The notes below the pieces were generated by a model. The model searched no databases. It saw only the letters and a list, made by a program, of their open reading frames with translations, and was not told where the DNA came from. A DNA stretch of 64,000 nucleotides from Escherichia phage vB_Eco_BCPEco_001, in the sequence record PV295200.1, one strand, 5' to 3'. Numbering within the stretch: the first letter of the stretch is position 1; every line of letters starts with the position of its first letter. A program made the translations under genes and the position numbers. Positions 3,186 to 21,126 of the stretch are shown one piece after another.

Positions 3186-5164
3186 TGTGATATAGGCTCC
3201 AAATCGATAGTTAAGTATTGCGGACGTAAATCATTTTCAAATACAATCAGTGAACCATCACGGGTAAAGATAACATCATCGGTTGGGTCAGAATATAATT
3301 CAATAGTCTGAACCTCAAATTTTTCAGATGTTAAATTAATTTTAGCGATATTCCAATAAATCATGTCAGTCGGATAATTTATTTCACCGATAACATAGTA
3401 TTTGTCGCGTCCATCAGAATTTGCTAATTTATTAAAATCATTGCCTGTATATGGCTGAATGTTTTCATTTTCTGTAACATCGCCAGAAGCAAATGGACCA
3501 ATAATAACTTTACCAATTCCTTTAGAATCTCGGTCTGTTGATACTATACGAACATCATATAATACATCTTCTTCTAAACCAGTATCAGGATTTACAACCT
3601 TTCGTCCAGAATTAAATGAAAACGTATTAGATTCCATAGAACGATCTTTTATTTGATTATTATATTTAATACCCGCTTCAGGCGTTTTATAGAAGTTTTG
3701 TACTTCACGAACCATTTGAATAGTCGCTGATGAACCAATGACAGAATGATCTGCATCATCTACATATGTCAACATCTTAGATTTAGCGAAAGACGAGTTA
3801 AAAATTTCTACATCTTCGGTATAATAGCGATCAATTTTATCAATTATTTGACCTTCAAGCCACTGTTCGGATTCTTGCAGCTTATTTAAAGCATATGTGA
3901 CTTTTAAATTAGTCTTAATAAAAAGGTAATTAGGAGAAATAATTGATGGTGTAATAGGAGCTAAATTATAGTCTTTGAGATAATTTTTAATATCTTCACG
4001 CTGTACGGTAGTTAAATACAGACCTGATTTAGGTTTAGCAGCAATAAATGCATACCCAGGTTTAGTAGAATCAGTGAAAGTTTGAACAGCTTGAATAATA
4101 GAACCAAATCTCTCTGAAACGAATGTATCATAGTCAGTCGCAGTTACGCATCGTTGCTGGGTTTCGCGTTTAATAGTACCCAATTCGCGAATACGCTCAA
4201 TATCTTCTGGATCACCGCCTCCATCTGCCCCAACAAAATCTGGGTCACCGTTTGGATTTTCATTAATATTGATGACAGTTATATTTGTTAATGTGTCTGC
4301 GTATGAAAATCCGACTGCTCCGTTCGCGTCAGCACCATTAGTACTAATGTACTCAATAACAATCGTAGAGTTCTGAGTAGGTTTAAGACCTCCAATATAA
4401 TTAGCAGTCAAAGCTCCTTCAGAAGCATTAACAGAAATTTCACCTTCACCAAAATAGAATTCAGTGTTTCCATCAATAGTTTCACGCATATAGTAAATCG
4501 TTGATGTTGAACCAGCATGAACCATTGACTTTCTCGTCCAGTTAATCCATTCCGCTCCATCAACATATAATTTAACCTGGTTTCTATCAATATTTTTATC
4601 ATAAATGATAATAGGTGTTAATTTATCATAAATGATTTCAGTTCTTACTATACGTCCCTGGGCCAATTTTAAACGTGGAAAATATTGGTTATTTTTATCA
4701 CGAATAGCAATAACGTCTTCGGTAGAAACGAAGTTATATGGATTAACAGAAGTATCTTTTGCATATGCTAAAAAGCGAGTTCCGCGAGGAATTGTAATGT
4801 AATTCCTATTCAATGCGTCGGTGCATGTTAACATAATTTCGGTTTGCGCAGCGGATTTTGAAGTAGGTAAATATCCGTTATCTTGTGCAGCTTGAACAAC
4901 TGAGCTTCGTAAGTTAGCAGTACGCATAAAGCTTTCATATACAGCAGCATTACCAAACTGCTGAATGTACAGCGTATTATAAGCCAAAAGGTCACACAGA
5001 ACGTTTAATCTTGAGCCTTCAAAATCATAATCCAAAAATTCATTTTGGCCATTAAGCCATTCAATGAGGTTTTGTTTTATTTCAGCAAACGTACCCCCGA
5101 CGAATATCTCGGGAATAGCATTTGCTGTTCTTGTTAATTGATAATTTACAGGGGTATTTGCCAT
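3182..5164 (-). CDS. 6: baseplate wedge protein gp6
   Basis: 660 aa ORF, same length as T4 gp6; ATGA overlap with gene 7. Confidence 0.85.
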   Translation of the reverse strand: MANTPVNYQLTRTANAIPEIFVGGTFAEIKQNLIEWLNGQNEFLDYDFEGSRLNVLCDLLAYNTLYIQQFGNAAVYESFMRTANLRSSVVQAAQDNGYLPTSKSAAQTEIMLTCTDALNRNYITIPRGTRFLAYAKDTSVNPYNFVSTEDVIAIRDKNNQYFPRLKLAQGRIVRTEIIYDKLTPIIIYDKNIDRNQVKLYVDGAEWINWTRKSMVHAGSTSTIYYMRETIDGNTEFYFGEGEISVNASEGALTANYIGGLKPTQNSTIVIEYISTNGADANGAVGFSYADTLTNITVININENPNGDPDFVGADGGGDPEDIERIRELGTIKRETQQRCVTATDYDTFVSERFGSIIQAVQTFTDSTKPGYAFIAAKPKSGLYLTTVQREDIKNYLKDYNLAPITPSIISPNYLFIKTNLKVTYALNKLQESEQWLEGQIIDKIDRYYTEDVEIFNSSFAKSKMLTYVDDADHSVIGSSATIQMVREVQNFYKTPEAGIKYNNQIKDRSMESNTFSFNSGRKVVNPDTGLEEDVLYDVRIVSTDRDSKGIGKVIIGPFASGDVTENENIQPYTGNDFNKLANSDGRDKYYVIGEINYPTDMIYWNIAKINLTSEKFEVQTIELYSDPTDDVIFTRDGSLIVFENDLRPQYLTIDLEPISQ

Positions 5165-13951: not shown

Positions 13952-14024
13952 TTGGGAATTAGCCAAGTTGGTAAGGCATAGCACTTTGACTGCTAGATGC
14001 AAAGGTTCGAGTCCTTTATTCCCA
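13952..14024 (+). tRNA. tRNA-Gln (anticodon UUG)
   Basis: Cloverleaf folded by hand: acceptor tgggaat/attccca, anticodon loop ctTTGac, T-loop ggttcgagtcc; CCA not encoded. Confidence 0.85.
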
Positions 14025-14025
14025 G

Positions 14026-14112
14026 CGCGAGAATGGTCAAATTGGTAAAGACACAGCACTTAAAATGCTGCGGAATGATTTCCTTGTGGGTTCGAGTCCC
14101 ACTTCTCGTACC
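14026..14112 (+). tRNA. tRNA-Leu (anticodon UAA), long variable arm, CCA encoded
   Basis: Acceptor gcgagaa/ttctcgt; anticodon loop ctTAAaa; T-loop ggttcgagtcc; 3' acca. Confidence 0.85.
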
Positions 14113-14118
14113 AAAGTT

Positions 14119-14191
<73 letters not shown>

Positions 14192-14202
14192 AAATTTAAT
14201 TT

Positions 14203-14276
14203 ACTTCGTGTAGCTCAGTTTGGTAGAGCGTCTGCTTTGGGAGCAGAATGTCGCAGGTTCAAATCCTGCCGCGGAG
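14203..14276 (+). tRNA. tRNA-Pro (anticodon UGG)
   Basis: Acceptor cttcgtg/cgcggag with G-U pairs; anticodon stem tctgc/gcaga, loop ttTGGga; T-loop ggttcaaatcc. Confidence 0.8.
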
Positions 14277-14278
14277 AC

Positions 14279-14366
14279 TGGAGGCGTGGCAGAGTGGTTT
14301 AATGCACCGGTCTTGAAAACCGGCAGTCGCTCCGGCGACTCATAGGTTCAAATCCTATCGCCTCCG
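14279..14366 (+). tRNA. tRNA-Ser (anticodon UGA), long variable arm
   Basis: Acceptor ggaggcg/cgcctcc; anticodon loop ctTGAaa; T-loop ggttcaaatcc. Confidence 0.85.
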
Positions 14367-14373
14367 TAATTTC

Positions 14374-14446
14374 GCTGATTTAGCTCAGTAGGTAGAGCAA
14401 CTCACTTGTAATGAGAAGGTCGGCGGTTCGATTCCGTCAATCAGCA
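14374..14446 (+). tRNA. tRNA-Thr (anticodon UGU)
   Basis: Acceptor gctgatt/aatcagc; anticodon loop ctTGTaa; T-loop ggttcgattcc. Confidence 0.85.
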
Positions 14447-14452
14447 TATCAA

Positions 14453-14524
14453 GGCCCTGTAGCTGGAAGGTTCAAGCAAGCGACTCATAATCGCCAGATG
14501 GTGGTTCAATTCCACCCAGGGCCA
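14453..14524 (+). tRNA. tRNA with CAU anticodon (Ile by homology to the T4 lysidine-modified tRNA-Ile; Met by anticodon alone)
   Basis: Acceptor ggccctg/cagggcc; anticodon loop ctCATaa; T-loop ggttcaattcc. Confidence 0.75.
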
Positions 14525-14565
14525 TATTTTGAGAACATAAATACTCTTAGAAATAGGAGATATTT

Positions 14566-15231
14566 ATGTTCTATTACATTTATAAAATAACAAATAAAAT
14601 TAATAATAAAATCTATATAGGCGCTCATTCTACCGAAAATTTAGATGATGGATATATGGGTTCTGGTAAATTATTAAAAAGAGCCCAAGATAAGTATGGT
14701 ATAGAAAATTTTTCTAAAGAAATATTAGAGTATTTTGACGATAAAACCTCTATGTTTGAGTCAGAAAAGAATATTGTGGCTGAAGAGTTTTTAAAGCGCC
14801 CTGATGTTTATAATTTGAAATTAGGTGGTGAAGGTGGTTGGGACCATTTAAACACTAAAGAATATTTGGATAAAAAGAAAGAAGCTTCCTTAAAAGGAGC
14901 TGCCGCTTTTAAAACCAGATTTGAGAACGACCCAGACCTTAAAGAAAAATATCGTAAAATGGGTTCAGAAAGGTTTAAACAGCTTTGGGATAATCCTAAG
15001 TATAGAGAGAAATTTTTAAATACTAAATCTTTCTTGGGTAAGACCCATACTCCTGAAACTATTAATAAAATGAAAGAATCTCACGCCAGAAATAAACACC
15101 AACAAGGTGAAAAGAATTCCCAATTTGGTATGATGTGGATTCATTCATTAGATGAAAAAGTTTCTAAACGTATTAAGAAAACTGACCCAATTCCAGAAGG
15201 ATGGTTTAAAGGTCGAAAAATGAAATTTTAA
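14566..15231 (+). CDS. segB: GIY-YIG homing endonuclease SegB, embedded in the tRNA cluster
   Basis: 221 aa, same size and position as T4 segB (between the tRNA subclusters); GIY-YIG motif [20 protein letters not shown]. Confidence 0.8.
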   Translation: MFYYIYKITNKINNKIYIGAHSTENLDDGYMGSGKLLKRAQDKYGIENFSKEILEYFDDKTSMFESEKNIVAEEFLKRPDVYNLKLGGEGGWDHLNTKEYLDKKKEASLKGAAAFKTRFENDPDLKEKYRKMGSERFKQLWDNPKYREKFLNTKSFLGKTHTPETINKMKESHARNKHQQGEKNSQFGMMWIHSLDEKVSKRIKKTDPIPEGWFKGRKMKF

Positions 15232-15233
15232 TT

Positions 15234-15310
<77 letters not shown>

Positions 15311-15629
15311 AAACAAGAAGCCGGGTCGCTACCGGCAAGTCGTCGGACTGATGTTCCCTGAGTAAGGACTGGCATTAATAAATCTTTATGTTTTGTTAAT
15401 GCCCCCTTATATCACAGCAGAAACGGCGCACCGAATTATCGATTCGAGGAAATATCTTTGCCGTAAGCCGAGTAGCGTTTTTGACGGAACGTTCGGATAT
15501 GGTCAAGATATGGCCTTTTAAAAATATTGAGTAGCGTCAACTGCTTAATAACCGGGTTCGAATCCCGGCGTTTCGTACAAACACTTGCCTTAGCAGGTGG
15601 AACCCCGACAAGGTTGCCGCAAGGCTCAG
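15311..15629 (+). ncRNA. stable small RNA region (T4 species 1/2, rnaC/rnaD-like) downstream of tRNA-Arg, with a tRNA-like T-arm
   Basis: No ORF; GC-rich structured sequence; tRNA-like arm ccgggttcgaatcccgg at about 15560-15576; position matches T4 stable RNAs C/D; boundaries approximate. Confidence 0.45.
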
Positions 15630-15656
15630 TCCCGACCGAAAGGTTGGGGCTTTTTA
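15630..15656 (+). terminator. rho-independent terminator (GNRA-loop hairpin plus T-run)
   Basis: tcccgacc gaaa ggttgggg followed by cttttt. Confidence 0.6.
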
Positions 15657-15769
15657 GTATCTAGGCCTTTCCGGGCCTCTCTAGGCATCATTTAGTTTAT
15701 ACCCTTTATAATATATTATCCTACCTTTTAATTGCCCCTCCTGACCCTAGAATTCCCTAAAACTTTTTA

Positions 15770-19433: not shown

Positions 19434-19964
<531 letters not shown>

Positions 19965-20023
19965 AGTTGTTTACTTTCTCCTAGAATTGTGATAGTATAT
20001 TCACAGTTACTTGGAGGGATAAA

Positions 20024-20440
20024 ATGACTCGTATTAATTTGACTTTAGTATCTGAACTTGCTGATCAACATTTAATCGCAGAATACCGTGAATTGCCGCG
20101 TGTTTTTGGTATAGTTCGTAAGCATGTGGCAAACGGTAAGCGCGTTAAAGATTTTAAAATATCTTCTAAATTTATTTTAGGTTCTGGTCATGTTACTTTC
20201 TTTTACGATAAGTTAGAATTTTTGCGAAAGCGTCAATCGGACATTATAACGGAATGCTTAAAACGCGGGTTCAGTATAAAAGATACTGAAGTTCCTGACA
20301 TCAGCGATATTCCAGCAGAATGGAAAAATGATTATAACCCATGCAAATCGGCTATTAAATTGAGTCAACAACGACTCGATGAAAAAATTTTAATGAAGCC
20401 ACACTGGTATAAATACTACGGCAAAAATATTTACATTTAA
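20024..20440 (+). CDS. denV: endonuclease V (pyrimidine dimer DNA glycosylase)
   Basis: 138 aa; [17 protein letters not shown]...[11 protein letters not shown] matches T4 DenV from memory. Confidence 0.9.
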
Positions 20441-20586
20441 ATAACATGGGAATAACCTGGACCTCATGATTCTGTGAGGGATTCCCGCCAACCTGTAATA
20501 AGGTCGAGCCCAAGTGCGGTAATGGGTAAATACAGAAATGGACAATTCATGCGCCATGGAATGGCCCAAACCTAGAGAGAACAAAA

Positions 20587-21126
20587 ATGAGAACATTTTT
20601 AACTGGTCCTTATCTATCCCTGATGAATGCTTTTACACACCATTCTGATGCTAGAGTAGAAGAAATTTGTAAAAACGATTATATCCTATCATTTGAAGAC
20701 TTACTTAAACAGTATTGCACACTTCGACTAGATGGTGGACGTCAATCCGGTAAATCAATTGCTGTGACTAACTTTGCTGCTAATTGGTTGTATGATGGCG
20801 GAACAGTTATTGTTCTTTCTAATACTTCAGCTTACGCTAAAATTTCTGCAAATAACATCAAAAAGGAATTTTCGCGTTATTCTAATGATGATATACGTTT
20901 TCGTTTATTTACTGATTCTGTACGCAGTTTTATTGGTAATAAAGGAAGCAAGTTCAGAGGTTTATCGCTTTCGCGAATTTTGTATATAATTGATGAGCCT
21001 GTCAAATCTCCTGATATGGATAAGATTTATGATGCTCATATTGACACTGTACAGTACTGCTGCAATAGTAAATGCTGCATTGGCGGTATTACTCGTCCGC
21101 AGTTTTTCGTAATTGGAATGCAATGA
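20587..21126 (+). CDS. hypothetical protein with a P-loop-like motif
   Basis: 179 aa; GGRQSGKS Walker-A-like motif; C-terminal Cys cluster. Confidence 0.5.
   Translation: MRTFLTGPYLSLMNAFTHHSDARVEEICKNDYILSFEDLLKQYCTLRLDGGRQSGKSIAVTNFAANWLYDGGTVIVLSNTSAYAKISANNIKKEFSRYSNDDIRFRLFTDSVRSFIGNKGSKFRGLSLSRILYIIDEPVKSPDMDKIYDAHIDTVQYCCNSKCCIGGITRPQFFVIGMQ

Follow-up and report, generated by a model that had tools for sequence, protein, structure and literature searches.

What lies between denV and the next gene in T4-like phages, and why should it differ in composition from the genes around it? The question arises in Escherichia phage vB_Eco_BCPEco_001, of which 64,000 nt (sequence record PV295200.1; the window) were analyzed. 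The phage is a Tequatrovirus and is 100% identical at this locus to Shigella phage SHFML-11. Its genes follow one another on the + strand in the order nudE, e, denV, the gap, a vs.8 homologue, vs.7 and vs.6. A preliminary description had placed a non-coding gap of 146 bp at 20441-20586, and these coordinates are exact, the gap running from the denV TAA to the vs.8 ATG. The gap is GC-rich as had been claimed. Its G+C content is 0.459, whereas denV has 0.341, vs.8 has 0.352 and the window as a whole 0.347; just 1.5% of 146-nt segments have a G+C content as high. A small structured RNA, a processing site and a remnant of a deleted or replaced gene had been proposed as its content. Comparison of related loci shows that the gap holds, at 20448-20535 on the + strand, a member of a widespread, phage-only family of predicted structured RNAs ~90 nt in length.

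The gap folded by itself does not reveal this structure. Shuffled versions of the 146 nt reach minimum free energies just as good (z = +0.54 and +0.08 for the two strands), and 6-nt inverted repeats occur at chance level locally (17 pairs in 271 nt), so that structure here is provable by comparison and not from the sequence alone. The inverted repeat GGGAAT/ATTCCC, one of two quoted in the preliminary description, is present, and it is helix P1 of the conserved structure.

A blastn search with the 146 bp matched 1,118 phage records. Identity is 94% in T4 and ~76-83% in other T4-like genera (over query positions 48-141). A core of 45 nt is 91-95% identical in the unrelated rV5-like phages of Vequintavirus, and a shorter part of it is present in Ivi (a 45-kb phage), Pylas (an N4-like phage) and others. 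Exact-pattern scans, rather than a profile scan, brought in further metagenomic lineages; because the patterns fixed part of the core, its invariance is partly by design. The carriers include T4-like genera, rV5-like phages, an N4-like phage, several ~45-kb phages and metagenomic lineages, and six classes were compared: Tequatrovirus (A), Mosigvirus-like phages and Klebsiella T4-likes (B), Karamvirus and Winklervirus (C), rV5-like phages (D), Pylas and 46-kb phages (E), and Ivi-like phages (F). The matches are intergenic wherever the records carry annotation, and no RNA feature is annotated at the element in any of the 1,118 records.

The BLASTN comparison with T-even and E. coli genomes that had been suggested found the element conserved in T4-likes, and neither a copy nor a host mimic in 5,426 E. 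coli genomes. Of 185,579 species genomes from bacteria and archaea, none contained the exact core pattern. A scan of window positions 19900-21100 with Rfam 15 (4227 models) gave no hit over the element at E<=10, and none was found at E<=1 in eight other loci from other lineages (L004, L005, L076, L077, L078, L098, L103, and L117). The literature, searched by topic and in full text for the core sequence, yielded no description of it. As far as Rfam 15 and the searchable literature reach, the element appears to be a new RNA class, present in T4 itself.

The fold was read from side-by-side comparison of classes A-F, and one architecture holds throughout (Table 1). The loop of P1 pairs with sequence 3' of a three-way junction, forming an H-type pseudoknot, X. 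The junction consists of P3 (with a bulged G), P4 and P5, connected by the joiners J4/5 and J5/3. P1 is found as GGGAA/UUCCC, AAAGG/CCUUU, AAAGC/GCUUU, and AAGC/GCUU. In the present phage X has just 3 bp; classes B and C have, at identical columns of the uncurated alignment, CCG/CGG, ACAC/GUGU, CGC/GCG, CACAC/GUGUG, and CCUG/CAGG. P2 reads CCUUA/UAAGG in L046, has a loop of 2-16 nt in other T4-likes, and is missing from classes E and F. The single change seen in P4 is compensatory, A-U to G-C, and belongs to a second tandem copy of the element in L031. J4/5 takes the forms CGA, CAA and CUA, and is shorter in a few members. P5 varies by compensation: GCC-UUUU-GGC (L078), GCG-CAA-CGC (L093), GCC-CGU-GGC (L098), and GCG-CAAG-UGC (L062), with GUC-CGC-GAC against GCC-CGC-GGC in the second copies of L031 and L033.

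Table 1. Positions in the window of the element, its parts and the flanking genes.
Feature	Positions	Strand	Remarks
e	19470-19964	+	
denV ORF	20024-20440	+	TAA stop at 20438-20440
P1, 5' strand, GGGAAU	20448-20453	+	pairs with 20481-20486
X, 5' strand, CCUG	20456-20459	+	within P1 loop; CUG pairs here
P2, optional hairpin, CCUCA-UGAUUCUG-UGAGG	20462-20479	+	inside P1 loop
P1, 3' strand, AUUCCC	20481-20486	+	RNAalifold; paired changes
Model R1 match, three-way-junction domain	20484-20531	+	69.3 bits, E = 7e-19
P3, 5' strand, GCCA	20487-20490	+	pairs with U20523, G20525-U20527
P4 hairpin, ACCU-GUAAUA-AGGU	20491-20504	+	essentially invariant; 100% paired; loop GURNNA
J4/5 joiner, CGA	20505-20507	+	C-N-A in nearly all
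P5 mini-hairpin, GC-CCAAGU-GC	20508-20517	+	2-3-bp stem across members
J5/3 joiner, GGUAA	20518-20522	+	invariant A3 columns; partly fixed by search patterns
P3, 3' strand, U, bulged G20524, GGU	20523-20527	+	
X, 3' strand, CAG	20533-20535	+	in L048, CAGG pairs with CCUG
3' extension, AUGGA...AUGCGCC-AUGGAAU-GGCCC	20539-20567	+	conserved in classes A-C
vs.8 homologue (P-loop NTPase), 179 aa	20587-21126	+	ATG at 20587

The helices were examined in alignments of different kinds. In the uncurated MAFFT alignment A1, RNAalifold recovered P1 with GC, AU and CG swaps; P1 is 95.2% paired there, and each of its five pairs shows two-sided change. For X, the A1 pairs 35-133, 36-132, and 37-131 form in every sequence of classes B and C and take up to four pair types, class A being shifted at these columns by gap placement. 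The junction domain was covered by A3, an uncurated alignment of 48 columns and 53 distinct domains. The inner pairs of P3 form in 53/53, 53/53, and 52/53 of its sequences with up to five pair types, and the bulged G is nearly invariant. The covariation score of A3 is 0.316, compared to 0.073 after shuffling (0/500) and at most 0.078 with the partners slid. A curated alignment of the six classes has 92.4% of cells paired (88.5% for X), 17/23 pairs changing on both sides and a score of 0.516 against 0.131 shuffled; since it was hand-fitted and N-padded and leans towards the model, it is used as supporting evidence only.

A covariance model of the junction domain, R1, gives true members 43-70 bits and chance pattern matches at most 17 bits. 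Its sole match in the 64-kb window is the element, the next best scoring 10.5 bits; the 69.3 bits of the match itself are by construction, because the window sequence sits in the seed. Swap tests between classes for P3 and X, in broad windows, were underpowered and did not beat the null, and the existence of P1 and X pairs per sequence was no rarer than in shuffled flanks, including those of eight lineages outside the derivation of the model. Support for P1 and X thus rests on the aligned compensatory changes. The + strand is favored because P3 has 21 G.U/U.G cells compared to three A.C/C.A cells, and because the orientation of the element is always that of the flanking genes and tRNAs. The folding and covariance analysis called for earlier therefore finds conserved structure, with compensatory changes in P1, X, P3, and P5, and what the relatives carry is clearly not ordinary intergenic sequence devoid of it.

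Some Karamvirus-like phages have a divergent second tandem copy ~90 nt after the first (L031 5092-5137, L033 9135-9180, and L053 477-522). Its junction is shorter, AGG(U/C)CAG(C/U)CCGCG(G/A)CGGUAA, and scores 44-53 bits with R1. A relaxed regular-expression search and R1 found no second copy within the window.

The genomic context of the element differs between T4-likes and the other carriers. In all T4-like genera sampled, the element is directly upstream of a vs.8 homologue, with a small gene inserted between them in L014. It fills the entire gap from stop codon to ribosome-binding site, and P1 starts 0-7 nt past the stop codon. The gene upstream is variable (denV, internal-protein genes or hypothetical genes). 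The ipII and ipIII genes were said to be missing, and between e and denV this is true of the present phage as compared with T4. Their absence was considered as the cause of the gap and rejected, as the element and vs.8 stay together in T4-likes whatever lies upstream. In T4-likes the element belongs to the early/delayed-early block, before the genes from vs.8 to regB. By phmmer, every T4-like locus has a vs.8 homologue downstream; no other locus does, nor was one found near the element outside T4-likes. The vs.8 protein matches PHROG 1488 (unknown function) and has weak similarity to the terminase ATPase; Pfam and PHROGs searches of the neighboring proteins gave no functional clue.

A search for sigma-70 hexamers and for GC hairpins followed by a U-tract found no promoter-like or terminator-like site on the + strand in 19900-20700. 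Since the element of T4-likes comes without its own promoter or terminator and P1 follows the stop codon so closely, in these phages it may act only as part of an mRNA. Of the small structured RNA that had been proposed, the conserved RNA structure is strongly supported, and the part that goes beyond the fold, a discrete small RNA in T4-likes, is not. Two promoter-like sequences of other kinds were seen nearby. A T4 early-promoter-like sequence, GTTTAC-17 nt-TATATT, lies just upstream of denV at 19966-20003, where it stands in place of the ipIII-ipII genes that T4 has between e and denV. The T4 late-promoter consensus, TATAAATA, is found at 20408-20415, inside the 3' end of denV and 33 nt before P1. 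It varies in relatives (TACAAATA in T4 and TATAAGTA in L002), and because of this lack of conservation the match is probably incidental.

Outside T4-likes the recurrent neighbors are tRNAs. In rV5-like phages, Pylas, 46-kb phages and several metagenomic lineages, the element is on the tRNA strand ~50-750 nt from tRNA clusters. It lies upstream of or inside the clusters in rV5-like and 46-kb phages, downstream of tRNAs in Pylas, L076, L077, and L080, and between two tRNAs in L094; in L098 it begins 6 nt after the CCA end of a tRNA. Intrinsic terminators are present 3' of the element in L098, L103, and L005, the order in L103 being promoter, element, terminator. A strong sigma-70 promoter comes right after the element in Ivi and, as read from the sequence, in pangalan. 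In the present window, ARAGORN found no tRNA or tmRNA at 20441-20586 and eight tRNAs at 13953-15311, and no model of the tRNA clan matched the element in the Rfam scan.

From these contexts we infer a self-contained RNA module and not the leader of a single gene. By sequence comparison, it has passed from one phage family to other, unrelated ones, and no protein gene has accompanied it. We give roughly even chances to the view that it is an autonomous structured non-coding RNA presenting its invariant junction to one conserved partner. The element would be transcribed together with whatever lies upstream, as part of a tRNA operon or of its own promoter-terminator unit in several lineages, and on the denV or internal-protein mRNA in T4-likes. 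Folded into a compact pseudoknotted body, it would then expose its P4 loop and invariant junction for recognition. Covarying helices that hold constant junction and loop nucleotides are the pattern expected where one conserved partner recognizes a surface; candidate partners are a protein (of host or phage), a small ligand, or an RNA that belongs to the tRNA/translation apparatus. That the element recurs beside phage tRNA islands points, by association only, to a role tied to the takeover of tRNA and translation or to its defense. In a more specific and more tentative proposal, the element represents a tRNA-island RNA class of virulent enterobacterial phages, either a new ribozyme or a decoy or mimic that captures a conserved host component of tRNA processing, translation or tRNA-targeting defense. 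If this were so, it would have spread horizontally among unrelated phage families because it would work without any phage protein.

By context, the nearest known RNAs are GOLLD and ROOL, which are orphan structured non-coding RNAs, adjacent to tRNAs, associated with phages and of unknown function. Many are found in phage DNA and beside tRNA genes, for which co-transcription with the tRNAs may be the reason (PMC5737381). GOLLD and ROOL are, however, ~500-800 nt long and form large homo-oligomers, whereas the element is ~90 nt, resides in virulent enterobacterial phages and is found in none of the bacterial genomes searched; their models (RF01998 and RF03087) had no match to it in the Rfam scans. 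The skipping-rope, drum, DUF3800-I and FuFi-1 motifs resemble the element in high conservation, pseudoknot-type complexity and frequent 3' terminators. Orphan motifs that are followed by terminators and are rarely in 5' UTRs were for these reasons judged to be neither riboswitches nor self-cleaving ribozymes (Weinberg et al., 2017, PMC5737381). The element differs from them in having no Rfam match, and no associated protein family outside T4-likes. Likenesses to twister, RNase P CR-II, the 16S 530 loop, tmRNA PK3, 5S loop E and the SRP Alu U-turn were considered, and were dropped because they are short and lack support from covariance models. By the tests run, the element belongs to none of the RNA kinds compared.

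Other explanations give the element a more local role. It could be a cis-regulator of vs.8 in T4-likes, acting as a riboswitch-like aptamer or a protein-binding translational operator, which we regard as rather unlikely. The constant vs.8 neighbor and the full occupancy of the gap before it speak for such a role, as do the features shared with riboswitch aptamers built of a three-way junction and a pseudoknot: covarying stems, invariant junction nucleotides and occasional tandem copies, with a start codon directly downstream in T4-likes and a 3' sequence that possibly competes. This sequence is the 3' extension, whose consensus AUGGA...AUGYGCC-ANGGAAY-GGCCC is common to T4-likes and more weakly to rV5-likes. 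It could be an alternative partner of the core, and hence an expression platform: RNAalifold pairs it with the invariant core over 5+2+5 bp (GGUCG/UGGCC, CC/GG, and GUGCG/UGCGC), and all changes observed, although one-sided, keep the pairing. There is no two-sided compensation, however; the duplex energy is no better than with shuffled cores (z about 0), and the extension stays constant when P5 changes, without covariation. The second inverted repeat of the preliminary description, gcgccatggaatggcc (20552-20566), has a CCATGG palindrome and a GCC/GGC hairpin, and its fourth pair shows no covariation. More generally, riboswitches lie consistently in the 5' UTR of functionally related genes, and here vs.8 is a consistent neighbor within T4-likes only; beyond them terminators, promoters or tRNAs intervene in place of a common downstream gene. 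Bacterial copies are absent by exact pattern, no riboswitch class matches, and the neighboring genes point to no ligand or protein.

A further explanation, which covers the processing site suggested earlier, is that of a new self-cleaving ribozyme or processing element that would split upstream mRNA or tRNA precursors from the downstream RNA. We consider it improbable. It has in its favor the compact pseudoknotted fold with conserved junction nucleotides, and the likeness, in strand topology and in phage and tRNA context, to the theta ribozymes, which are HDV-like (PMC10879173). The order P1, X, P2, P1', domain, X' is that of the nested double pseudoknot with crossing P1 and P2 by which HDV-like ribozymes are recognized, and the L098 element starts next to a tRNA 3' end. 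Topology alone matches, and the HDV-like identity was rejected. The catalytic cytosine that defines these ribozymes at the first position of J4/2 (PMC10879173) is absent: right behind the 3' strand of P3 there is U, G, C/U or no nucleotide, depending on the class. The conserved P3/L3 that forms P1.1 is also absent; the equivalent hairpin, P2, has loops of 2-16 nt and does not occur in classes E and F. The conserved nucleotides sit instead in the P4-equivalent domain, which HDV can do without. Theta-type cleavage occurs within ~5 nt of a tRNA end, whereas the element is ~50-750 nt away except in L098. Hammerhead, twister, pistol, hatchet and HDV models had no match in the Rfam scans of the window and the eight loci, and close terminators, as present in several lineages, have been taken to speak against self-cleavage in similar motifs (PMC5737381).

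By analogy with HK022 put, the RNA might instead modify RNA polymerase in cis (processive antitermination or anti-Rho), for read-through of tRNA operons and delayed-early genes. Untranslated operons need protection from Rho, as is established for rRNA operons. In rV5-like and 46-kb phages the element stands ahead of or within tRNA clusters, which are untranslated, and this would suit such a function, as would the early/delayed-early location before vs.8 to regB in T4-likes. We nevertheless hold it to be highly improbable, since in L098 the element is the last feature before an intrinsic terminator, a terminator also follows it in L103, it is 3' of the tRNAs in Pylas, L076, L077, and L080, and likeness to put, nut or boxA is absent among the Rfam matches.

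The remaining explanation is that the gap contains no RNA element, and instead a 33-aa ORF (20474-20575), an N-terminal extension of vs.8, a gene remnant or ordinary intergenic DNA. Some GenBank records mark the 33-aa ORF or a longer vs.8 here (in L002, 1675-1776, the ORF is annotated over the element as SfPhi01 gene_165), the old T4 record X04567 has an "ORF 64.0" of 219 aa, and the vs.8 frame is open across the element in T4. The frame is closed in most relatives, however, and indel lengths are not divisible by three: the loop of P2 measures 2, 4, 8 or 16 nt, and a 1-nt indel precedes the ATG. Helix substitutions are compensatory, and the core keeps its 91-95% identity in unrelated families without an ORF covering it. 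A protein-coding ORF was rejected on these grounds, and the idea of a remnant of a deleted or replaced gene fails on the same ones, namely conservation across unrelated families, compensatory helices, non-triplet length changes and no kept frame. Absence of an RNA is almost certainly the wrong reading. The 33-aa ORF and the extended vs.8 of X04567 are probably mis-annotations, and the element would correct spurious small-ORF annotations in many deposited genomes.

T4 has one of the most studied genomes, yet the element is without RNA annotation in more than 1,100 phage records. Its core is nearly identical across T4-like, rV5-like, N4-like and small siphovirus-size phages, and has no protein partner gene. 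As such a protein-free core is kept across phages and is absent from the bacterial collections searched, the element must do something useful alone. Its placement bears on what tRNA islands do beyond codon supply, and countering tRNA-targeting immunity is one possibility. The element is small, and is genetically tractable in T4.

Several features of the surrounding DNA deserve mention in their own right. In L098, a viral contig of 92.8 kb, AGGUGGGCUUAGAAGCAGCCAUCCUUUAAAGAGUG is present at 3351-3396 on the + strand, 20 nt past tRNA-Pro (3255-3330). It is near-exact to helix 43/44 of 23S rRNA, the GTPase-associated center where L11 and thiostrepton bind, and matches the LSU rRNA model at positions 1184-1229 (E about 1e-4). 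By its sequence, AGGUGGGCUUAGAAGCAGCCAUCCUUUAAAGAGUG is a mimic of an rRNA fragment within a phage tRNA island. Right after the element of Ivi (L005), 2053-2160 contains a sigma-70 promoter (TTGACA-17 nt-GATACT), then ~60 nt and a strong terminator, CCCGGCCCCGACCCAGCCGGGAUUUUUUUUU; the stretch looks like a second, separate small RNA gene. The element of Klebsiella phage Pylas (L022) lies inside an unannotated, ORF-free array of repeated units, ~1 kb in length (~1270-2280), and a similar array is found in L025, L028, L032, L034, L039, and L054. Each unit consists of CACAACACACAACAGGUAAGAGCAUUG, a variable insert of 50-80 nt and CAGUGCUCUUUCCGUUGUGGUGA, with long stems possible, and one of the inserts in Pylas holds a tRNA T-arm, GCGGUUCGAUUCCGC.

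The tRNA region of the window has features of its own. An ORF for a GIY-YIG (segB-like) homing endonuclease, at 14566-15230, separates two tRNA subclusters. T4 encodes the stable RNAs C and D (rnaC and rnaD) beside tRNA-Arg, which are non-tRNA phage RNAs of unknown function co-transcribed with tRNAs; they are tRNA-like and come from a locus different from that of the element. The segment that follows tRNA-Arg in the window, 15311-15660, has no Rfam match and no R1 match, and by R1 is hence unrelated to the element. It is without ORFs, holds a tRNA-like T-arm, CCGGGUUCGAAUCCCGG, and presumably carries RNAs C and D.
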